From NCBI GenBank assembly GCA_018657845.1, contig JABHWJ010000020.1, positions 190 to 64,189 on the forward strand: a stretch of 64,000 nt of DNA, in the 5' to 3' direction. Both the position numbers and the translations under genes were made by a program. Shown one piece after another: positions 3,731 to 21,802 of the stretch. This DNA is from Candidatus Woesearchaeota archaeon (lineage in GTDB: Archaea > Nanobdellota > Nanobdellia > Woesearchaeales > GW2011-AR9). Below the pieces are notes generated by a model. That model made no database searches, had not been told where the DNA came from, and worked only from the letters and a program-made list of their open reading frames with translations. Each line of letters starts with the position of its first letter. Position 1 is the first letter of the stretch.

Positions 3731-5293
3731 TTAACTCAATCCAACTCCAGAAAAACTCTGCTCCGCTTTCTCTCCAGTATTACTCAATTTAACAAACTCC
3801 TTAAACAAAGGAACTTTTATTGGAACTGCAAACTTAGTAAATGTAGAAGTAACTAAAGCTTCTCCCTTATCTAAAGAAGCGATATTCCTATTATCCTGCG
3901 AAAGATCTTGAGGTGCACTCTCAATAATCGCTTGTCTCTCAGAACCCATTTCTATTCCCAAAATAATTTTAGTATTCATATTAGCTAAAATATTCTTAGG
4001 GATCTCTGAAGGCAACTGCGTTATCGCAATCAGACCAATTTTAAACTTCCTACCTTCCCTAGCAATACTTTCAAATACATTTGACCCTTGTTCCAAAACC
4101 CTTTTCCCCAAAACCCTAGGAGCTTCTTCCAGAACAATAGAAACTACCGCCTTATCTTCTAAAACTCCTTGTTTCTTATAATATTTATATTTTTCAAAAA
4201 TCTCAGTAGTGATCAAACCACCCACTAAAATCTCAATCGCTCCAGAGAAAAAACTGGTATCAATAATCACAATTTTTCCTTCTTCTAACTCTCGACAAAT
4301 ATCTCCAACTGTATTCTCTCCAGCAAACTCATCGAAAATACCTTGACAACAAACTCTTCCATCTACTAATTCCAACCCTAATAAAGAAATTAATTTCCTT
4401 TTTACAACCGAGATAGTGTCCTCATGAAAATTCATCCCTTCTATCTTCCGTTCCTCAAGCAAACACTTAATCCACTCATCTTTAAATTTCTTAGAATAGG
4501 CATACAAACATTGCCTCTGAGGATCGGATAAATTAACTGCCCCTTGAAAATGTTCTGGCTTCAATCTCTTTAAATTAATCTTCAATGTCCGCGCACCAAC
4601 CGGAGCATTACTAGGGGTATAATAACTAACTCTGTCTTTCTGGGGATGATCCTTTAATCCCAAACCATTTCTTCCATAGTATTCATCATGAGGGTCTAAA
4701 ACCAACATTCCTGCATATCCCTGGCCTAAAACATCCCACAATATGCAACTCATCAAATTACTTTTACCTTTTCCAGTAGAAGCTGGAATCAAAACATGAT
4801 GACTTAAAACTTCTTTTCCTGGAAGAAAAATATCAAAATCCATTTCCTTACTTCCGCTTCTTAATTTTCCTAAGAAAAATGGACTTTCTGGTTTAGTAAT
4901 AAAAAACAAATCTTCTTTTCTAATCTCTCTTACCTTATTAAAAAAAGAAGGCAACATTTTACAACTCCGACTATTCTCGCCAACCGTCAGCATAGGTTTC
5001 AAAAACGCTAATTGATAATTCCTTAAATTACTGTCCATTATCTCAAATGTTCCAGTTTCGCTGGACTGAGAACCATTACTACCTGTATTACTTTCTTCTA
5101 AATTCATTCCCGAAACCAACTCTAGATTTTGCTGAGATAGTTGAGAACCATATTGTAAATCATAAACTTGTAAAATAAATCGCTCGCCAATGTCTTCAAT
5201 CACCATTAACTCCCCTAATTCTACCTGTTCTCCGGCTTTAATTCTAATTACAATCTTTCCAAAATCTCCAGAAATCACCTGCCCCTTTGTCAT
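3731..5293 (-). CDS. HerA-like (DUF87/FtsK-HerA superfamily) P-loop ATPase with N-terminal HAS-barrel-like domain
   Basis: Walker A is [10 protein letters not shown] and Walker B-like is VVSIVLEEA. The N-terminal beta-barrel-like segment ([23 protein letters not shown]) and C-terminal ITQLPSEI...NTKIILG are typical of HerA/DUF87 proteins. Confidence 0.72.
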
Positions 5294-10733: not shown

Positions 10734-11240
10734 ATGGCAAAAAAAGAAACTACTCTTGAAAGAACTTACAACGTTCCTTTACGTAAAGAATTCCAAAAAG
10801 TTCCTCGTTGGAGAAAAACAAAAAAAGCCAGCACCACTTTAAGAGAGTTTATTCAAAAACATATGAAATCTGAAGATGTTAAAATTGGTCCATTCTTAAA
10901 TAAACACCTTTGGAAACATGGAATTAAAAATCCTCCTCATCACGTTAAAATTACTGTTCAAAAAAATGAGAAAGGTGTTGTAAAAGCTGAACTCTTTGGT
11001 CATAAAATAGAAGAAGAAAAAAGTACCAAGAAAAAATCAAAATTGCAAGAAGTAGCTGAGAAAGCAGGTGTAAAGATGCCTAAGAAAACCGAAAAGAAGG
11101 CAGAGAAAAAAGAAGTAAATGAAGAAAAAGTAGAAACTAAAGAAGAAGTAAAAGAAAATAAAGAAGAACCAGTAGAAGAACCTAAAACTGAAGAATCTCC
11201 TGCACCTGAAACCACCGAAGCACCTGAAGAAAAAGAATAA
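10734..11240 (+). CDS. rpl31e: Ribosomal protein L31e with ~75-aa K/E-rich C-terminal extension
   Basis: The L31e core is ERTYNVPLRKEFQKVPRWRKTKKASTTLREFIQKHMKSEDVKIGPFLNKHLWKHGIKNPPHHVKITV. The tail is EEEKSTKKKSKLQE...EESPAPETTEAPEEKE. Confidence 0.88.
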   Translation: MAKKETTLERTYNVPLRKEFQKVPRWRKTKKASTTLREFIQKHMKSEDVKIGPFLNKHLWKHGIKNPPHHVKITVQKNEKGVVKAELFGHKIEEEKSTKKKSKLQEVAEKAGVKMPKKTEKKAEKKEVNEEKVETKEEVKENKEEPVEEPKTEESPAPETTEAPEEKE

Positions 11241-12921: not shown

Positions 12922-13677
12922 TTATTCTTGGCCTTCTACTTCGGGTTGAGAATCTTTATTATCTGGTTCTGGTTGAGAATCTTCATTCTTTACTTGGCCC
13001 ACCGAGTTCTCTGTTTCTTCAAGATTCTGTGTTTCTTCAGGCAAGGATTTTTCTTCTTCCTTCTTAACCTTAAGAGTAACTGCCTTTTTTGCTTGAGATT
13101 CTGGTTCTAATTTTACTACCCTAACTAATACATCTTTTACTGGACAGATTTTGCTTAATCTCTTTTTTGTTTCGATTTGGAATTTATTTCTCAATAAATT
13201 TTCCAAGAAAACATCTAAATTAGATTTATTAGCAAAATCAACTAAAGCTTCTCTAACTATCGCTCTCAAATCAGTACAAGTAGAATGGGGCACTTTAAAA
13301 GTAGTTGAAACTAAAGTTTTAATCCTAATAAGTTTACCCTCTTTAGTTCTGGTTATGAAAGATTCATCTGCTCGAGCCCCTCTTCTTTTAACCATTTTTT
13401 TAATGAAAAAAGGAACATAATTATAACCAATTCCTTCTGTTTCTAAATCGCTACCAGAAACACTTTTAACTTTTAAAGAAACATAAACATTTTGATCTCT
13501 TACACTACCAGTTAAATCTCTTAAACTTATTTTCATTTCTCTCCCGACTGCCACATTTGCCTCAGTGAGATAACTCTCTCCTATCTTTTTCTTTCCTAAG
13601 AAAGCAGGAGAATATATTGGGAACCATCTTTTCTTTTTTACTTTTATTTTAGCTGTTTTTTTTTGTGCTTTTGCCAT
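12922..13677 (-). CDS. rps3ae: Ribosomal protein S3Ae (S1e) with acidic C-terminal tail
   Basis: KKKRWFPIYSPAFLGKKKIGESYLTEANVAVGREMKISLRDLTG is the S3Ae N-terminal signature. The tail is EETQNLEETENSVGQVKNEDSQPEPDNKDSQPEVEGQE. Confidence 0.88.
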   Translation of the reverse strand: MAKAQKKTAKIKVKKKRWFPIYSPAFLGKKKIGESYLTEANVAVGREMKISLRDLTGSVRDQNVYVSLKVKSVSGSDLETEGIGYNYVPFFIKKMVKRRGARADESFITRTKEGKLIRIKTLVSTTFKVPHSTCTDLRAIVREALVDFANKSNLDVFLENLLRNKFQIETKKRLSKICPVKDVLVRVVKLEPESQAKKAVTLKVKKEEEKSLPEETQNLEETENSVGQVKNEDSQPEPDNKDSQPEVEGQE

Positions 13678-13990
13678 TTTATTTTATGAACCTCATAATT
13701 GTTATTTTATATTCCTAAATCTAATTTAGATACCCAATTTGTTTTTAAATTAAGAGATTGTTTAAAAAGGTATCGGAAAAATTTTTCTCTTGTGACATCC
13801 AAAAAATCACCTTCATCAAACCTCAAAGATAATTCCTTTTTTTAATAATAAAAATCCCAAAATAAGCCCATTTCTAGCCCCATTTCAAAAAAGAATATAA
13901 TAAATTGCCTTCTAATTAAGAAACCAAGCCCAAAATACCACCAGAAAGGGAAAAGAAACATATTTAAATAAGTGAATCCTCCAAATATCC

Positions 13991-15154
13991 ATGGGAAAAA
14001 AACTAGGTGTGGAATTAGAACTTCTAGTATTAGATTCTCAATTCAGAGAAACCAATCAAGCCGATGTTTTATTGGACGCCGCTAAAAATCAAGATCTTCC
14101 TTTAGTTGGAGAATGTTCACACGCCATGGTTGAACTAAATGGCAAGCCAGGAGATACTTTTTATGTCCTTGAAGACTTCATACATAATATTTCCAAACTA
14201 AATGAATTAGCTCGTAGCTTAAATCTTTATGTCCTCCCAATAGAAACTCCTTTGGACCCAAACTTTACTCCTAAAATCAGAGATCATCCTCGCTATTCCG
14301 CTAAAAGAAAATTATTAGGAGAAGAAAGATTTACGATTAGTGGGAAAGTATTAGGATTCCATACCCATTATGAATTGGAAGAATCAGACCAAAAAAAAGT
14401 TGATCAAATTAATTTCTTAACCTTAATGGATCCTCCAGCAATCACTATTAGTGCCAGTTCTCCTAAAAAAAACCCAGATGGAAGTTTATTCAATAACTGG
14501 AGAACCTATTCATACCGTAACATAGTTCATGAAAACCTTCCCTTTCAAGGCCACTTACAACAATTCAGACAATCATATAACGAATATTTAGAACAACTCG
14601 AAGAAGAATTCTCTAGGTTCATCAACTTAAGTGCGCAACAAGAGATTGATTTCTCTTCTTGTTCAACACAGTATAATTCTATCTGGGGCCCAGTAAGAAT
14701 TAACCCTGGTTACCAAACTGTAGAAATTAGAAGCCCCGGAGCTAATCCAGATTTACATCTTTTGTTCTCTCTCGCAACAATCATTAAGGGAGGATTAAGA
14801 AGAATTGCCGAGGACCCTTCTTCTGCTGAGGATAATGCTTATTTCAAACTCTTATTAAATGATGGAAATCCAGGAGAATCTTTTGAAATTCTTCAAGCCC
14901 TTAGTTATGATTCTATGCAATATGGATTAGCATCCGAGACTGTGACAAACTTTTGTCAAAACGCATACGACTTTTGTAAAGAATCATTAACTCCTAGAGA
15001 ATTAGCCCTCACCCAAAACTTGGACCCCTTTATCTCTTCAAGAAAGAATATGTCCGATTATATTCATTCCCTCAAAGGTTCAACCCAAGATAAATATTCC
15101 CACCTACACGACCTATATTTGGGATCTTTAAAAACATTGAAGGGATTCTTATGA
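13991..15154 (+). CDS. GCS2-family carboxylate-amine ligase (YbdK / glutamate-cysteine ligase family 2-like)
   Basis: LGVELELLVLD, then ECSHAMVELNGKP and GFHTHYE, match the GCS2 pattern G.E.E..lvd / E....qvE..t.p / G.HvHv. A TATA-like atatttaaata lies about 25 nt upstream. Confidence 0.7.
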   Translation: MGKKLGVELELLVLDSQFRETNQADVLLDAAKNQDLPLVGECSHAMVELNGKPGDTFYVLEDFIHNISKLNELARSLNLYVLPIETPLDPNFTPKIRDHPRYSAKRKLLGEERFTISGKVLGFHTHYELEESDQKKVDQINFLTLMDPPAITISASSPKKNPDGSLFNNWRTYSYRNIVHENLPFQGHLQQFRQSYNEYLEQLEEEFSRFINLSAQQEIDFSSCSTQYNSIWGPVRINPGYQTVEIRSPGANPDLHLLFSLATIIKGGLRRIAEDPSSAEDNAYFKLLLNDGNPGESFEILQALSYDSMQYGLASETVTNFCQNAYDFCKESLTPRELALTQNLDPFISSRKNMSDYIHSLKGSTQDKYSHLHDLYLGSLKTLKGFL

Positions 15155-16026
15155 AACAGATGAATCTTGGAGCAATCCTTCGGGCCCCACTGCCACAACT
15201 AATTGCTCAAGAGAATTATTTTGGAGACTATGATCATCTTCTTTTCTTAAAAAACGTGGGTCACAAACTTACAGTTTCCAGAAAAGGAAAACACTTTGAA
15301 CAGATAGCTGATAAAGAATTAGTCTTCTTCTTTGATTTTCCATTTAACTCCCAATTAGCAGAAGAGCTCAGTTCCTATGAACCTCATGTAAAATTTGTTA
15401 ATCAACCCAGCGCAGTCTTAAAAACTTCAGAAAAGGATTTTGAGTTTACTCATTTTAACAAATACTTACCTCCTACTATTTTGATAAGAAACTCCTCTGA
15501 ACTAGAATTAGAAGATTTTATTAAAACTCACAAAAAAGTTATTGCCAAACCCTTGGATGGCACTGGAGGAAAAGATATATTCCCTTTTGATTTATCAGAT
15601 GATTCAACTGAAAACATCGCCAGAAAAGTTTCTGAACTTCACACCAATCATCATTCAGGATACCTTCTCCAAGAGTTCATTGAGAATAAAGGCGACATAA
15701 GAGTTATTTGCTACAATGGAAAAATTCTTGGCCATTTTGGAAGATATAATCCAAACCACCACACCAATAATTTAAGTAATGGTGGATTTGTTACTCGGCC
15801 AGAACTTACTAATAAAGACGCTAACACTTGTGAAGAAGTCTCTTCTTATCTCAAAGATATGGGTGTTTATTACGCTGGAATTGATCTTTTAGAATCTCGC
15901 CTTTTAGAAGTAAACGTAGCTTGTCCTGGAGGGGTTGGAGTAGTCACCCCTCGCTATGGTCGATCTGTACATGATGCTTTTAGAATGTTTGAGCAAGAAA
16001 CATATTCGTTGGTTAAGCAAATTTAA
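15151..16026 (+). CDS. ATP-grasp ligase, glutathione synthetase (GshB)/RimK-like
   Basis: VIAKPLDGTGGKDIF, LLQEFIENKGDIRVICYNGKILG, NLSNGG and GIDLLESRLLEVNVACPGG match the prokaryotic GshB C-terminal ATP-grasp blocks. The start overlaps the upstream stop (ATGA at 15151-15154). Confidence 0.75.
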   Translation: MKQMNLGAILRAPLPQLIAQENYFGDYDHLLFLKNVGHKLTVSRKGKHFEQIADKELVFFFDFPFNSQLAEELSSYEPHVKFVNQPSAVLKTSEKDFEFTHFNKYLPPTILIRNSSELELEDFIKTHKKVIAKPLDGTGGKDIFPFDLSDDSTENIARKVSELHTNHHSGYLLQEFIENKGDIRVICYNGKILGHFGRYNPNHHTNNLSNGGFVTRPELTNKDANTCEEVSSYLKDMGVYYAGIDLLESRLLEVNVACPGGVGVVTPRYGRSVHDAFRMFEQETYSLVKQI

Positions 16027-16052
16027 TAAAGAATAACTCTTCACAAATTAAG

Positions 16053-16661
16053 ATGATTCCATATAAACAAACTACCCCATTTACAACTGCGGCATCTTCT
16101 TTATTAATAATTCTAAACCACTTCAATCCTTCAATAAAACTTACTCAAGAAAATGAATTTGATATTTGGAAAAATACTGTTAACCTCCCCACTCGAGCTT
16201 CTTCAATTTATGCCCTAGCCACTTACGCAAAACGACAAGGATTGAATCCAAAAGTAATTGTCGAAGAAAAAGAATATAATTTTCCAGATTATAGATTTTA
16301 TTGTTATAAAAAAGAAGATATTCAACACGCAGCTTTTTCAGCAGAACAACATCTTAAGGAAGCAGAAAAAAATAATATTTCCATTAAAGAAAAAGAAATC
16401 TTCCTTAAAGATATTAAAAAAGAATTAAATAAAAATCATCTCGTTCTTCTTAGAATAAACACTAAACCCTTAAGAAATGAAAAAAGAAACACCTCTAATT
16501 TTATAGTTGTTCACGGTTACCAAAATGAATTCTTCAATATCATCGATCCCTTATTCGGAGCCTTATCTATTCCCGAAGAGACTATGCAAGAAGCCTTCCA
16601 TACTCTCGAAACAAAAAAATATCGGGATCACCGCATGATCATTTTTGAAACTATCAAATAA
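16053..16661 (+). CDS. Peptidase C39-like (papain-fold) domain protein, catalytic Cys position occupied by Thr
   Basis: KQTTPFTTAASSLLIILNHF aligns to the C39 pattern Q-x5-C-G-x-A-x-L with C->T and G->A. The downstream NFIVVHGYQNEFFNIIDP retains the His and Asp blocks. Assignment is by eye only. Confidence 0.5.
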   Translation: MIPYKQTTPFTTAASSLLIILNHFNPSIKLTQENEFDIWKNTVNLPTRASSIYALATYAKRQGLNPKVIVEEKEYNFPDYRFYCYKKEDIQHAAFSAEQHLKEAEKNNISIKEKEIFLKDIKKELNKNHLVLLRINTKPLRNEKRNTSNFIVVHGYQNEFFNIIDPLFGALSIPEETMQEAFHTLETKKYRDHRMIIFETIK

Positions 16662-16695
16662 TTTTCATTAAATAAAATAACATTAAACTGAAACT

Positions 16696-17433
16696 ATGTG
16701 TCGGATGATTATAGCCATTGGAGAACTTAATTTTAACCCATTAATAGACAGTCTTATCCTCATGGCCGAAGATAAAAATGAACTTCATGAACACAACAAA
16801 AATAACCAAGGAAGTTTCCTCCACAAAGAAGGTTGGGGCATTGCCTACTTAGATCAAGACCAAAATTGGATAATTGAAAAATCTCCCCTTCCAATTTACA
16901 AAGATTCAAAAATAGACCAATGTAGAAACATAAACACCAACCTTGCTATTCTTCATGTTCGCAAAGCCACTAAAGGAATTGTCTCCCTAGAAAACACTCA
17001 CCCTTTCCAACAACAAGATTTTGTTTTCTGTCACAATGGGGGAATCCATGAAGAAATTCTCCACAGCCCTTCTTTTCAACCTCAAGGAAATACTGACTCA
17101 GAAAAACTCTTTTACTCATTATTAACTGAAATAAACCATCATCCTAAGATTGAAGATGCAATTAAAATAAATCTAAACAAGTATCACAATTACTCAGGGA
17201 TAAATTTATTTCTAGCCAACAAAAGCCATTCTTATATTTACATCAAAAAAAATAACCTCAAAGAATATTTCCAAATGAAACTAGGAATAAATAAAAATTT
17301 CTTAATTATCAGCTCAGAAATTCTTCCCAACCTTCCTGAAACTAAATGGCAAATATTGGAACAAGATGACTTAATTACTATCAATAATCAAACCAAAGAA
17401 TTCTCCATCGAAAACACATCTAACTCTCAATAA
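16696..17433 (+). CDS. Class-II (Ntn) glutamine amidotransferase-like protein (YafJ/EgtC-like)
   Basis: N-terminal MC (Cys2 nucleophile) is followed by RMIIAIG. The blocks GWGIAY, LHVRKATKG..SLENTHPF and FCHNGG are typical GATase_2/Ntn. Confidence 0.75.
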   Translation: MCRMIIAIGELNFNPLIDSLILMAEDKNELHEHNKNNQGSFLHKEGWGIAYLDQDQNWIIEKSPLPIYKDSKIDQCRNINTNLAILHVRKATKGIVSLENTHPFQQQDFVFCHNGGIHEEILHSPSFQPQGNTDSEKLFYSLLTEINHHPKIEDAIKINLNKYHNYSGINLFLANKSHSYIYIKKNNLKEYFQMKLGINKNFLIISSEILPNLPETKWQILEQDDLITINNQTKEFSIENTSNSQ

Positions 17434-18520
17434 CTGTTAATCCTTTAGCTATTAAAATCTTCCTCACCGAATTATTTATCTGTTCTTCAGAAATCTCTCC
17501 TCTTTCTACAGCTTCTTTAATTCTTAATATCATTTCCCAAATTTCATTGGGATCTTCGTTAAAGTTAATAATTAAATCATTTCCTGCCACCACTAGATCT
17601 ACATACATATTTTCTATAGCTAAATAATAATCCTTTAAACCCAACATATTCACTTCATCACTAACTATTAATCCTTTAAACCCCTCCTTTACTCCCTTAA
17701 TAACTTCTTTGGAAACAACCGAAGGATATCCCTCAGAATCGACGGCCCCAGAAACGATTATATGACTCACCATTACCATTCCTACTTCTCCTTTCTCAAC
17801 TAGATAATTATAAGGATACAAATCTTCTTCTGCTATTGTCGCCACCACCAAAAATTTATGGGGATCTTTTACAACTAATGTTTTTCCGGGATAATGTTTG
17901 GCTGTAGCAATAACTCCTTCACTTTGCAAACCCAAAATATAAGCTTCTGCCAACTCACCAATTCTTTTTTCATCACCAGGAAAACTCCTACATTTCCAAA
18001 TCTCATCATTCAAATCAACAACAGGGGCATAATTAACATTAAATCCCAATCCTGACAAAAACTTTCCTTCATCACTACCTTTTTCAAATGCCTCTCCAGT
18101 ACTATTAATTTCACTCACTGCCACAAATTGTTTAAAATTAGCAAAAGGATTCCAACAACCCTCTAAATCCACAGTTACAAAAAAAGGTATCTCCATTTCT
18201 TCCTGAAATTTATCAATTATTTCTTTATACAGCTCTCCGTTTTGTAAAGCAAACAAATGAATTCCTCCAACTTGCATATTTTTCCAAGCATGTAAATTAT
18301 GTAATCCCCCATGTACAATAACCATCTGAGCTATCTTTTGTTCCAAACTCATTGAACTTAAATCTACCACTCCATCCTTCACTTCAAATTTCTGTTGTGG
18401 GATCAACCACCCTTTTGCTTTAGCAATATTCAAAGAACCCAACACTAAAACAAGCACTATTAAAACTAAAAAAATCTTTTCACTCAAACCTCTTTTTCTT
18501 TTTTTTATTCTAATCACCAC
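17420..18520 (-). CDS. Glycoside hydrolase family 3 (NagZ-like beta-N-acetylhexosaminidase), N-terminally membrane-anchored
   Basis: GGIHLF, PVVDLN, KHYPG and GLIVSDEVNMLG (nucleophile Asp block) match the GH3 N-domain motifs. The N-terminal helix IFLVLIVLVLVLGSLNIAKA acts as anchor or signal. Confidence 0.78.
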   Translation of the reverse strand: MVIRIKKRKRGLSEKIFLVLIVLVLVLGSLNIAKAKGWLIPQQKFEVKDGVVDLSSMSLEQKIAQMVIVHGGLHNLHAWKNMQVGGIHLFALQNGELYKEIIDKFQEEMEIPFFVTVDLEGCWNPFANFKQFVAVSEINSTGEAFEKGSDEGKFLSGLGFNVNYAPVVDLNDEIWKCRSFPGDEKRIGELAEAYILGLQSEGVIATAKHYPGKTLVVKDPHKFLVVATIAEEDLYPYNYLVEKGEVGMVMVSHIIVSGAVDSEGYPSVVSKEVIKGVKEGFKGLIVSDEVNMLGLKDYYLAIENMYVDLVVAGNDLIINFNEDPNEIWEMILRIKEAVERGEISEEQINNSVRKILIAKGLTVIES

Positions 18521-18986: not shown

Positions 18987-19220
18987 ATGACTGTTAAAGT
19001 TTATTCTACACCTACATGTCCCTGGTGTAAAAAATTAAAAGCGTGGTTAAAAGAAAATAAAATTGCCTTCAAAGATCTCAATGTTGCTGAAGACGAAAAA
19101 GCTAGAGCGGAAATGATTGAGAAATCTGGTCAGATGGGCGTTCCTGTAACTGACATTAATGGAACAATTACTGTTGGCTTTGATGAAAAGAAACTTGAAG
19201 AATTATTAAAGAAAAAGTAA
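18987..19220 (+). CDS. Glutaredoxin-like / NrdH-like thioredoxin-fold protein (CPWC)
   Basis: VKVYSTPTCPWCKKLKAWLKENKIAF...GVPVTDING...VGFD has the classic Grx fold pattern with a CPWC active site. Confidence 0.85.
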   Translation: MTVKVYSTPTCPWCKKLKAWLKENKIAFKDLNVAEDEKARAEMIEKSGQMGVPVTDINGTITVGFDEKKLEELLKKK

Positions 19221-21300: not shown

Positions 21301-21564
21301 ATGAATGTAAACCTTTATGTGGTCCCCACTTGTTTGTGGTGTAAGAAGGCCAGAAATTTCCTCAAAAAGAAAAAAATTCCTTTCGAAGAACTAGATATTA
21401 ATGAAGAATCCCAATATCGAGAAGAAATCTTAGAAAAAACTAGTCAAATGGCCGTCCCAGTTATCGAGATTGATGGAGAAATTATCATCGGCTACAAAGA
21501 ACAAGAGATCAATGAACTAATCAAAAAAACTAAAGCAAATAACAAATTAGAAGAGGATATTTAA
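21301..21564 (+). CDS. Glutaredoxin-like thioredoxin-fold protein (CLWC)
   Basis: LYVVPTCLWCKKARNFLKKKKIPFEELDI...AVPVIEIDGEIIIGY has the Grx fold pattern. Confidence 0.82.
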   Translation: MNVNLYVVPTCLWCKKARNFLKKKKIPFEELDINEESQYREEILEKTSQMAVPVIEIDGEIIIGYKEQEINELIKKTKANNKLEEDI

Positions 21565-21565
21565 A

Positions 21566-21802
21566 ATGGTAAAATACAAAGTAACCCTTTTGAAAAATGA
21601 GTGTATTATGTGTGGTGCTTGTGCCGCAATCTGTCCAGATTTCTTTGAAATGGATGAAGATAATGTTTCTCATCTCAAGAACAGTATCCAAAATGGCGAC
21701 AAATGGGAATTAATTATAAATACCGAAAATGAAAAAGCAGAAATTCAAGAAGCTGTTGATGCTTGTCCAGTCGACATCATCAAAATCGAAGAAGAAAATT
21801 AA
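21566..21802 (+). CDS. Small ferredoxin (Fe-S cluster protein)
   Basis: CIMCGACAAICP...AVDACPVDII carries a CxxCxxC...CP cluster motif. It starts 1 nt after the stop of the Grx-like gene. Confidence 0.75.
   Translation: MVKYKVTLLKNECIMCGACAAICPDFFEMDEDNVSHLKNSIQNGDKWELIINTENEKAEIQEAVDACPVDIIKIEEEN

Follow-up and report, generated by a model that had tools for sequence, protein, structure and literature searches.

Glutathione (gamma-Glu-Cys-Gly) is built in two ATP-dependent steps by GshA and GshB or by GshF. Amino acids are also added to proteins, by RimK to S6 and by TTL to tubulin, and gamma-glutamyl amides are cleaved by GATase_4-type enzymes such as EgtC and yeast Dug3. Amidoligases that cluster with peptidases of unrelated folds were reportedly catalogued in silico by Iyer et al. 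in Mol Biosyst in 2009. The MATCAP/TMCP enzymes are C-terminal carboxypeptidases, and their eukaryotic members trim protein C-termini (PMC10499314). Here, we analyzed a four-gene locus (positions 13991-17433) in a 64,000-nucleotide stretch of DNA, hereafter called the window, which encodes a GCS2-type ligase, a GshB-like ATP-grasp ligase, a DUF3335 papain-fold protein and a stand-alone GATase_4 protein. The source is best explained as a marine Woesearchaeote (DPANN), and the locus as one leaderless operon in which two modules have been joined. Module A (13991-16026) is a rare, translationally coupled pair of ATP-dependent ligases that appears to be imported, and module B (16053-17433) is the resident pair of the lineage, DUF3335 and GATase_4. 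The four-gene set is a composite of these two modules and no conserved unit. The genes and the promoter-like element are as follows.

13991..15154, + strand, GCS2/YbdK-fold carboxylate-amine ligase gene, 387 aa (open reading frame (ORF) list, Pfam)
15151..16026, + strand, GshB-derived ATP-grasp ligase gene, 291 aa (ORF list, Pfam)
16053..16661, + strand, DUF3335 papain/C39-fold protein gene, 202 aa (ORF list, Pfam)
16696..17433, + strand, GATase_4 class-II (N-terminal nucleophile, Ntn) amidohydrolase gene with Cys2, 245 aa (ORF list, Pfam)
13963..13970, + strand, TATA-like box TTTAAATA, about 22 nt before the first ATG (read from the sequence)

Compared with the described systems, this locus has several shared and several different features. 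First, as in GshA with GshB or in GshF, a gamma-GCS-fold ligase is coupled to an ATP-grasp enzyme that is kin to GshB, and two sequential ATP-dependent amide bonds are predicted. Unlike GshA and GshB, the window proteins lie under the curated cut-offs, the N-domain of the ATP-grasp is undetected, its substrate-side motifs are changed, its family is very rare, and hydrolases are encoded alongside. Second, a GCS2-type ligase occurs together with a stand-alone GATase_4, as in EgtA/EgtC, and EgtC is the best NCBIfam match of the window GATase_4; however, this GATase_4 is a resident gene that lies outside the ligase cassette. None of EgtB, EgtD and EgtE (sulfoxide synthase, methyltransferase) appeared among the genes of the window scan, of the listed gene tables or of the neighbourhoods clustered for 66 relatives. 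Third, the window pair is orthologous to DPANN pairs that are followed by MATCAP, which connects it with neighbourhoods of QEGLA/MATCAP (TIGR02421, PF08014) and a GshB-like ATP-grasp, but the window has no MATCAP, the archaeal cassette adds GCS2, and the bacterial ATP-grasp keeps GSH-S_N. The tubulin tyrosination cycle (TTL and MATCAP/TMCP) resembles the relatives of our locus, which also pair an ATP-grasp with a MATCAP-family carboxypeptidase able to undo the bond (PMC10499314), although the window ATP-grasp is of the GshB lineage, not TTL, and MATCAP is absent. Fourth, DUF3335 has the same fold as Alr0975, the C39 double-glycine peptidases and PeiR, and the Gln, the nucleophile position six residues later at the helix start, the His strand and the Asp-Pro align; in contrast to these enzymes, window DUF3335 has Thr for Cys and the His is deleted. 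The C39-like domain of HlyB is likewise degenerate and non-catalytic, and window DUF3335 resembles it in the lost catalytic residues. Finally, in three related loci (L091, L092 and L094), an intact papain-fold Cys peptidase comes after a GspS/CP-ATP-grasp-like ligase, an arrangement analogous to a split version of the Gsp synthetase and CHAP amidase of GspSA, but the GspS-like Pfam matches are weak or faint and the window has the GshB-like ATP-grasp in that place.

In our literature search, no paper was found on the Woesearchaeal island described below, on its degenerate DUF3335 anchor, on the cassette of GCS2 and trimmed GshB, or on the alternation of MATCAP and C39-like proteins. For DUF3335, one classification paper was found; for DUF1704/MATCAP/ATP-grasp/QEGLA, nothing was found; and for Woesearchaeota with glutathione, nothing relevant appeared in titles or abstracts.

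Organization of the putative operon

The layout given in the original prediction was fully recovered from the ORF list and the sequence. All four ORFs are co-directional, the GCS2 and ATP-grasp genes overlap as ATGA (ttcttATGAaacag), and the following gaps are 26 nt (ATP-grasp to DUF3335) and 34 nt (DUF3335 to GATase_4). The predicted TATA box is present as TTTAAATA at 13963-13970, and it is likely the promoter of a leaderless operon transcript, since its distance of about 22 nt from the ATG fits such archaeal transcripts. The tight spacing of the genes behind this single promoter-like box suggests co-expression. The gap 5' of the operon (13678-13990, 313 nt), which had been described as non-coding, holds only mechanical ORFs of 24-48 aa and has no Rfam match; a conserved small ORF is absent, and no precursor gene is evident nearby, as had also been predicted. 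At the other end, the 3' end of GATase_4 overlaps a convergent GH3 gene by 14 nt. The same four-gene arrangement was assembled independently from at least five metagenomes (L001-L005), in which the 202-aa DUF3335 protein is identical, and is therefore no assembly artefact.

The four domain calls of the original prediction were reproduced with Pfam (GCS2 1.5e-8, GSH-S_ATP 1e-30, DUF3335 3.6e-20 and GATase_4 1.8e-22), and both the quoted ATP-grasp motif GIDLLESRLLEVNVACPGG and the GATase_4 N-terminus MCRM, which contains Cys2, are found in the translations. The flanks of the window consist of archaeal core genes, namely S19e, L31e, Cbf5 and S3Ae, fibrillarin/Nop and the L3-L4-L23-L2 operon. A role in anti-phage defence was rejected as far as PADLOC reaches, since none of the four proteins matched any of its models.

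The ligase cassette

The GCS2 protein matches Pfam GCS2 (PF04107) with 34.8 bits against a gathering score of 21, and it misses the equivalog cut-offs (57.4 against 176.4 bits for TIGR02050, and 18-40 against 332-437 bits for the Glu-Cys ligase models). When used as a single sequence, it had no match in a PDB sequence search. The family profile matches E. coli YbdK (1r8g) at 1.3e-6, with conserved GxElE, sMvE and GfHvH motifs and a conserved AsSP segment, and the enzyme looks active, its catalytic motifs being kept. The AlphaFold2 model has a predicted local distance difference test (pLDDT) value of 91, and its top structural matches in Foldseek are all YbdK and gamma-glutamylcysteine ligases. 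YbdK was matched with a template modelling (TM) score of 0.65-0.73 and the plant Glu-Cys ligase 2gwc with a TMq of 0.70, and the gamma-GCS half of fused GshF and the E. coli gamma-GCS were also matched. In contrast, PafA (4bjr) and Dop reach only 0.35-0.41, below all gamma-GCS and YbdK matches, and PafA/Dop with the glutamine synthetases cover 0.32-0.41. These far weaker matches do not support the link to Pup ligase that the original prediction had offered as an option, and the kinship was rejected on the ranking of the folds; no conserved small ORF is available as a tag either. Our best guess from the model is that GCS2 is a gamma-glutamyl-amine (gamma-Glu-X) ligase.

In the ATP-grasp protein, Pfam detects GSH-S_ATP and finds no match to GSH-S_N (PF02951). 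E. coli GshB (1gsa) is matched at 2e-17 over query residues 68-266 only, with an alignment that begins at query residue 68 and target residue 100, and about 47 alignment columns of the N-domain are absent. The protein misses both GshB equivalogs, NF003573 (126.5 against 272 bits) and TIGR01380 (107.4 against 299.05 bits), whereas its next-best relatives pass them (for example, P0147 with 303.8 and 299.2 bits). The original prediction had noted that the protein might prove to be RimK acting on S6; the RimK model TIGR00768 gives 69.3 bits against a cut-off of 143.4, weaker than the GshB models, and this identity was not borne out. The ATP-grasp catalytic set (Lys, hinge Gln/Glu, Arg and the Mg-binding D/E-x-N) is intact, with K133, Q174, R184, R198, N207, D245, E253 and N255 invariant in the family, and the enzyme looks active, as GCS2 does.

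The family is very small. A word-indexed search gave only 8 relatives of the ATP-grasp and 10 of GCS2, and an exhaustive HMMER search of 1.84 billion cluster representatives gave about 10 ATP-grasp family members at 188 bits or more. Beyond them lies a plateau of 310-320-aa proteins at about 135 bits, and all 40 that were tested match GshB models (down to 1e-113 to 1e-128). Since the plateau is GshB, the ATP-grasp family appears to be a small and divergent offshoot of glutathione synthetase, with true GshB as its nearest outgroup. The reaction type, in which an amino acid is added to a C-terminal carboxylate, is likely retained, and the substrates probably differ from those of GshB. The enzyme is predicted to extend the C-terminal carboxylate of the GCS2 product by one residue. 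One further sequence, P0123 (225 aa, from an ENA contig of 3434 nt), shares 90% identity with the N-terminal half of the ATP-grasp in the window, yet its annotation is PF01041 (DegT/DnrJ aminotransferase). Either the assembly is chimeric or a close relative may have a genuine fused or truncated gene.

The two ligases recur together. In all nine loci examined with this GCS2 type (384-444 aa; L078, L080, L082, L083, L091-L094 and the window), it is directly followed by a second ligase, usually overlapping and otherwise a few bases apart, and this second ligase is GshB-like or GspS/eukaryotic-GS-like. Wherever the contigs of the related loci examined extend that far, a peptidase gene lies directly 3' of the ligases, the window excepted. 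Where a GshB-like ATP-grasp of 277-297 aa takes the second place (L078, L080, L082, L083 and L093), the next gene encodes a MATCAP/QEGLA metallopeptidase that matches PF08014 and TIGR02421 at 1e-34 to 1e-37. Where the GspS/CP-ATP-grasp-like ligase of 427-429 aa takes it (L091, L092 and L094), the next gene encodes a C39-like protein with intact Gln and Cys; only in L091 is this peptidase complete, and there the His and Asp are present too. A metagenome scan with the ATP-grasp profile added one true relative (L083), and the other seven matches were generic ATP-grasps.

The window ligase pair is orthologous to the MATCAP-linked DPANN pairs at 34-51% identity. Window GCS2 shares 47-51% identity with its cassette counterparts in L078 and L082, 37% with that in L080, and only 24% with the resident GCS2 of L008 and L011. 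Several cassettes are located at the same island as in the window, with the metallophosphoesterase or S3Ae upstream (L080, L083 and L094), and L082 has the order GCS2, ATP-grasp, MATCAP and DUF3335, its DUF3335 being 64% identical to that of the window and also carrying Thr12. No MATCAP gene is found anywhere in the 64 kb of the window, which either lost it or never had it. The window thus holds a cassette without MATCAP at the place where its closest relatives carry a resident GCS2, upstream of DUF3335 and GATase_4. The guanine-plus-cytosine (GC) content of the cassette is 0.36 with a coding-strand GC skew of -0.05 to -0.12, against 0.31-0.33 and -0.27 to -0.29 for DUF3335 and GATase_4, a difference that agrees weakly with a two-module origin.

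Other genes accompany the cassette in its relatives. A TrmB/MarR/AsnC-like regulator of 317-323 aa lies divergently on the minus strand just upstream of GCS2 in L078, L091, L092 and L093; the window cassette lacks it and has S3Ae upstream instead. In L091 (10251-10670) and L083 (about 4760-4942), the cassette peptidase is succeeded by a conserved protein of some 139 aa (MVILFDQ[FY]N[ML]PE[SN]IFEIIF[AS]TKQQVIVA...); it occurs with two different cassette types, is not found in the window, and could be a candidate regulator or substrate.

The pairing of MATCAP with a GshB-like ATP-grasp, together with an FGase, also exists in bacteria, on Sinorhizobium/Ensifer megaplasmids. In Sinorhizobium medicae pSMED01 (L095, 2524-8234) and Ensifer adhaerens (L096), a MATCAP/QEGLA gene (PF08014, 1e-88 to 4e-95) is directly followed by a full-length GshB-like ATP-grasp, with an FGase-like gene some 1.8 kb upstream of the pair in L095. 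Such a MATCAP homologue is carried by 116 plasmid records. A 440-aa ORF beside the bacterial MATCAP was considered as a hidden GCS2 and rejected (hhalign probability 0.4%); it is possibly a spurious high-GC ORF.

The DUF3335 island

For the survey of the island, one genome per GTDB species was scanned with the DUF3335 profile, which gave 66 loci, all in metagenome-assembled genomes of DPANN archaea. The ORFs around them were called and sorted by phmmer and clustering, and cluster representatives were analyzed with Pfam and NCBIfam. The named homologues are from Woesearchaeota or Nanoarchaeota, partly by design, because the scan used motifs typical of Woesearchaeota.

In Woesearchaeota, DUF3335 anchors an island whose ligases and hydrolases vary, and it is the one constant member. 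Its usual setting is after Cbf5, a metallophosphoesterase (-) and S3Ae (-), and before GH3 (-), a protein of about 115 aa (-) and a glutaredoxin-like gene. The neighbours that were found beside it are listed below.

GATase_4: 27 loci (26 species and the window)
GCS2 of 400-450 aa ('GCS2_449 type'): 21 species
GCS/GCS2-like ligase of 516 aa: 4 species
GshB-like or RimK-like ATP-grasps: 9 loci, the window counted
Protein of 433 aa with weak CP_ATPgrasp_2 / eukaryotic GSH_synth_ATP matches: 4 species
Class-I GATase / peptidase C26: L017, L059, L067 and L070
AstE-like deacylase: L025 and L045
Asp/Glu racemase, RimK-like, second ATP-grasp-like gene and M55 D-aminopeptidase: L031 and L037
Nothing relevant: L012, L016, L029 and L040

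The accessory genes at the site comprise GCS2 in three types, at least four ATP-grasp types, class I and class II GATases, AstE, M55 and Asp/Glu racemase. The gene order of the window was found in none of the 66 species-level relatives, and the four genes are not conserved as a unit. In the closest relatives (L027, L036 and L008, with DUF3335 58-70% identical), the order is GCS2 (402 aa), DUF3335, a 251-aa minus-strand gene and then GATase_4, and no ATP-grasp is present at the site.

An alternative gene set lies upstream of DUF3335 in L031 (4453-7948), with the same layout in L037 and in part in L019, L022 and L076. It consists of an Asp/Glu racemase (PF01177, 2e-43), a RimK-like ATP-grasp, a second ATP-grasp-like gene (weak DcsG match) and an M55 D-aminopeptidase (9.5e-54), and by its domains it looks like a module for the synthesis and degradation of D-amino-acid peptides. 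In one Woesearchaeote (L006, 8634-9263), a MazE/ParE-type toxin-antitoxin pair is located directly 3' of DUF3335, which is consistent with the site as an insertion hot spot.

DUF3335 and GATase_4

The DUF3335 protein matches Pfam PF11814 ('Peptidase_C39 like') with 72.8 bits against 25. It had no match in a PDB sequence search, and its papain-like fold was recognized from the AlphaFold2 model (pLDDT 95.5), for which Foldseek gave PeiR, Nostoc Alr0975 and C39 double-glycine peptidases (probability 1.0, TM 0.5-0.57) at an identity of 10-15% to any solved structure. Alr0975 is a primitive phytochelatin synthase that was solved as a glutathione acyl-enzyme, and PeiR is a pseudomurein endoisopeptidase.

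The catalytic Cys and His are both missing in the window protein. Gln6 and Asp165-Pro166 are kept; Thr12 takes the place of the Cys, six residues after Gln6 at the N-terminus of helix 9-24; and the strand expected to start with His starts with Asn149, a two-residue His-bearing segment being deleted. At position 12, 43 of the 67 DUF3335 sequences carry T, 15 carry C, 4 carry S and 3 carry G. The two-residue insertion that supplies the His (N[SP]HY) is present only in a distant clade (L056, L058, L059, L064, L067-L070 and L072), in which Cys12 is found in 8 of 9 members and Ser12 in L070. The intact Cys/His/Asp of this clade indicates that the family descends from active cysteine peptidases and that the clade of the window lost the dyad. 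Hence, the proposal that the C39-like protein is an amide-cleaving enzyme could not be upheld for the window copy, which is most likely a pseudo-peptidase. The protein is nevertheless strongly constrained, with 41-75% identity across the 66 species, many Arg/Lys positions kept in at least 85% of the 67 sequences, and E35, W39, R48, Y75, Y85, R134 and R191 among the residues kept in at least 65 of 67 sequences of both clades. This pattern is most likely the signature of a pseudo-enzyme that still binds something, and an adaptor or regulator is predicted.

In contrast to DUF3335, GATase_4 is predicted to be an active gamma-glutamyl-amide (or glutamine) hydrolase. It matches Pfam GATase_4 with 80 bits against 23, and the MCRM, HVRKAT, HNGG and TDSE motifs of class-II (Ntn) enzymes are present. 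In GlmS and PurF, the Cys is the nucleophile, the Arg binds the alpha-carboxylate, Asn-Gly forms the oxyanion hole, and the Asp binds the alpha-amino group. All 30 relatives share the MCR[MI] N-terminus and HNG, and no member lacks the Arg of HxR or TD[ST]E. With these residues intact, the enzyme should act on glutamine or on gamma-glutamyl amides with free Glu alpha groups, like EgtC and Dug3. The EgtC model gives 48.6 bits against a cut-off of 218.65, and YafJ-like 1te5 is matched in the PDB at 4e-10. EgtA is unmatched and the pathway partners are absent, so that the EgtA/EgtC analogy of the original prediction does not extend to membership of that pathway. With the resident copies in L018, L027 and L036, the window GATase_4 shares 49-52% identity. 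In about 15 relatives, a GCS-type ligase lies immediately before GATase_4; this ligase is of the GCS2_449 type in about 12 loci and is the 516-aa GCS-like ligase, c25, in about 3. In about 9 loci, GATase_4 adjoins DUF3335 without a GCS-type ligase.

Proposed pathway and alternative explanations

Using the evidence above, we tentatively propose that the locus makes a gamma-Glu-X-Y peptide and removes the gamma-glutamyl group, a reading that we regard as possible, though somewhat short of an even chance. The folds, the conservation of residues and the linkage of the genes are observed; the substrates and the connection between the two modules are our extrapolation. In the first step, GCS2 would activate the gamma-carboxylate of L-Glu and couple it to X, an amine or amino acid, so that gamma-Glu-X is formed. 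The ATP-grasp would then activate the C-terminal carboxylate of gamma-Glu-X and add a residue Y, giving a glutathione-like gamma-Glu-X-Y. For turnover or deprotection, the gamma-glutamyl group would be stripped by GATase_4, with Cys1 as nucleophile and its pocket intact. In sister loci, Y would be removed by the MATCAP/QEGLA metallocarboxypeptidase, and the gene for such C-terminal trimming is missing in the window; DUF3335 is not the trimming peptidase because its Cys/His dyad is gone. It would instead be a non-catalytic adaptor or regulator that binds the peptide or one of the partner enzymes. The similarity of the DUF3335 model to Alr0975, a papain-fold enzyme that cleaves glutathione, favours the proposed pathway. 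The product is probably not glutathione.

The build-then-trim logic of the original prediction holds in general. Three pairs recur across the related loci, namely a GCS-type ligase with GATase_4, a GshB-like ATP-grasp with MATCAP, and a GspS-like ATP-grasp with an intact C39-like peptidase, and each hydrolase could undo the bond of its ligase. The part that assigned cleavage to the window C39-like protein falls with the loss of its catalytic residues.

Several points weigh against the proposed peptide pathway. Both ligases score far under every curated equivalog cut-off of NCBIfam. In the ATP-grasp, GSH-S_N is undetected and the GshB motifs RxDPPFD and NVTSPT are changed to FFDFPFN and NVACPGG, and with these changes its substrate could be larger, or no gamma-glutamyl dipeptide. 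A glutathione-type thiol draws no support from the glutaredoxin-like genes nearby, which belong to the YruB family. In many genomes, DUF3335 is kept where no ligase gene adjoins it. The four genes are not conserved as a unit, so that the two modules may not act on the same molecule, and we infer their co-transcription from the spacing of the genes.

Among the alternatives, reversible tagging of protein or peptide C-termini survives best, as an unlikely but serious explanation. In such a system, the GshB/RimK-type ATP-grasp and perhaps GCS2 would write the tag by joining amino acids to a C-terminal or side-chain carboxylate, as RimK and TTL do on their protein substrates, MATCAP (in relatives) and GATase_4 would erase it, and the dead DUF3335 would read it or serve as an adaptor. 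A MATCAP/QEGLA homologue follows the ATP-grasp in the relatives, and the eukaryotic MATCAPs act on protein C-termini (PMC10499314). The N-domain of the ATP-grasp, shortened relative to GshB, could open the site to a bulky substrate, and a pseudo-peptidase that retains its binding groove would suit the role of reader. However, there is no conserved small gene for a substrate or tag in the upstream gap or the locus, the GCS2 model fits gamma-GCS and YbdK and not PafA/Dop, and the GATase_4 pocket keeps the residues that bind free alpha-amino and alpha-carboxyl groups of a glutamyl moiety, as expected for small gamma-glutamyl compounds. The nearby S3Ae and L31e do bear long acidic tails that end in Glu, but S3Ae keeps its place by general synteny, in loci with and without ligases. 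In its furthest form, this explanation would have a short gamma-glutamyl-containing tag written, erased and read on a protein or peptide carboxylate in DPANN archaea, with DUF3335 repurposed from a peptidase into the reader or adaptor, as a prokaryotic counterpart and possible source of the eukaryotic ATP-grasp/MATCAP code on tubulin tails, which we consider improbable.

Rather unlikely, too, is that the genes share no pathway at all and that the region downstream of S3Ae and the metallophosphoesterase is a recombination hot spot, at which the cassette (with MATCAP lost), DUF3335 and GATase_4 are merely adjacent. The gene content of the site is indeed highly variable over the 66 species and includes toxin-antitoxin genes, glycosyl-related genes and regulators; the composition of the cassette differs from that of DUF3335 and GATase_4; and the regulator and peptidase that usually accompany the cassette are missing in the window. 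On the other hand, amide ligases and amidohydrolases with many unrelated folds are strongly over-represented among the accessory genes, the cassette is directly upstream of DUF3335 in L082 as well, and the 26/34-nt spacing behind one promoter-like box suggests co-expression.

A genuine glutathione or gamma-Glu-Cys pathway, with GCS2 as GshA, the ATP-grasp as GshB, a Dug3-like GATase_4 and the thiol used by the glutaredoxin-like proteins, is of equally low probability as the tubulin-code scenario. In the databases, the ATP-grasp is matched best by GshB and GCS2 by Glu-Cys ligases or YbdK, true GshB is the nearest outgroup of the ATP-grasp, and two glutaredoxin-fold genes lie within 5 kb. The scores, however, are 2- to 10-fold below the GshA/GshB equivalog cut-offs, which denies both ligases the GshA/GshB membership that had been considered; the N-domain and motif changes of the ATP-grasp point the same way, and the extreme rarity of its family is unlike a housekeeping thiol pathway. 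The glutaredoxin-like genes were rejected as support for glutathione, as they belong to the YruB family and are syntenic in relatives that have neither ligase.

A split glutamine-dependent amidotransferase, in which GATase_4 would pass ammonia to GCS2 for the amidation of a carboxylate (with, e.g., a compatible solute or a modified amino acid as the amide product), is very improbable: GATase_4 retains the full class-II glutamine-binding set and directly follows GCS-type ligases in the loci counted above, and the GS/GCS fold includes ammonia-using ligases (glutamine synthetase matches in Foldseek), but two genes separate GATase_4 from GCS2 in the window, GATase_4 also occurs beside DUF3335 without any GCS-type ligase, and the characterised stand-alone GATase_4 enzymes (EgtC and Dug3) are gamma-glutamyl-amide hydrolases, not ammonia donors.

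If the proposed gamma-glutamyl tripeptide is made, it would be a new low-molecular-weight peptide or thiol; to the best of our knowledge, none of this kind is known in the lineage. The reduced DPANN genomes spend four genes on ATP-driven amide chemistry near the ribosomal core, which suggests a needed function. The island combines three ligase types, each with a hydrolase that could undo its bond, around a peptidase fold that has lost its dyad and is still strongly constrained, and DUF3335 can serve as a clear case of an archaeal pseudo-enzyme. For DUF3335, prokaryotic MATCAP/QEGLA and stand-alone GATase_4, three families of which little is understood, the island also offers partners that can be put to the test. 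In addition, the recurrent pairing of GshB-like ATP-grasp and MATCAP in archaea and bacteria may bear on the origin of the eukaryotic tubulin detyrosinase.

Flanking genes and composition of the window

S3Ae (12922-13677, -) and L31e (10734-11240, +) have long acidic C-terminal extensions that end in Glu (...PEVEGQE and ...EAPEEKE). Such tails are of the kind extended by RimK-type ligases, and with the adjacency being general synteny they are only a lead.

Downstream of the locus, a GH3 beta-N-acetylhexosaminidase-like gene with an N-terminal membrane anchor (17420-18520, -) converges on GATase_4. The next gene encodes a conserved membrane protein, rich in Cys and about 115-140 aa long, and the synteny of the two genes extends across Woesearchaeota. 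The similarity of the GH3 product to NagZ is weak (80.5 bits against a cut-off of 207) and curious for an archaeon.

At 18987-19220, 21301-21564 and 21566-21802 lie two glutaredoxin-like genes of the YruB family, with CPWC and CLWC motifs, and a neighbouring ferredoxin-like gene for a protein of 78 aa. The YruB model TIGR02196 gives 97.3 and 84.3 bits for the two glutaredoxin-like proteins against a cut-off of 88.55, and the first of the two genes is conserved downstream of the island in most relatives.

Over the whole window (1-64000), the two strands are strongly asymmetric; the GC skew of the + strand is -0.3 to -0.4 where genes lie on the - strand and about 0 where they lie on the + strand. 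When calculated for the coding strand, the skew is +0.23 to +0.52 for the minus-strand genes and -0.29 to +0.08 for nine of the ten measured plus-strand genes, the small glutaredoxin-like gene having +0.23. A C excess of the + strand throughout the window seems to be superimposed on the G-richness of coding strands.

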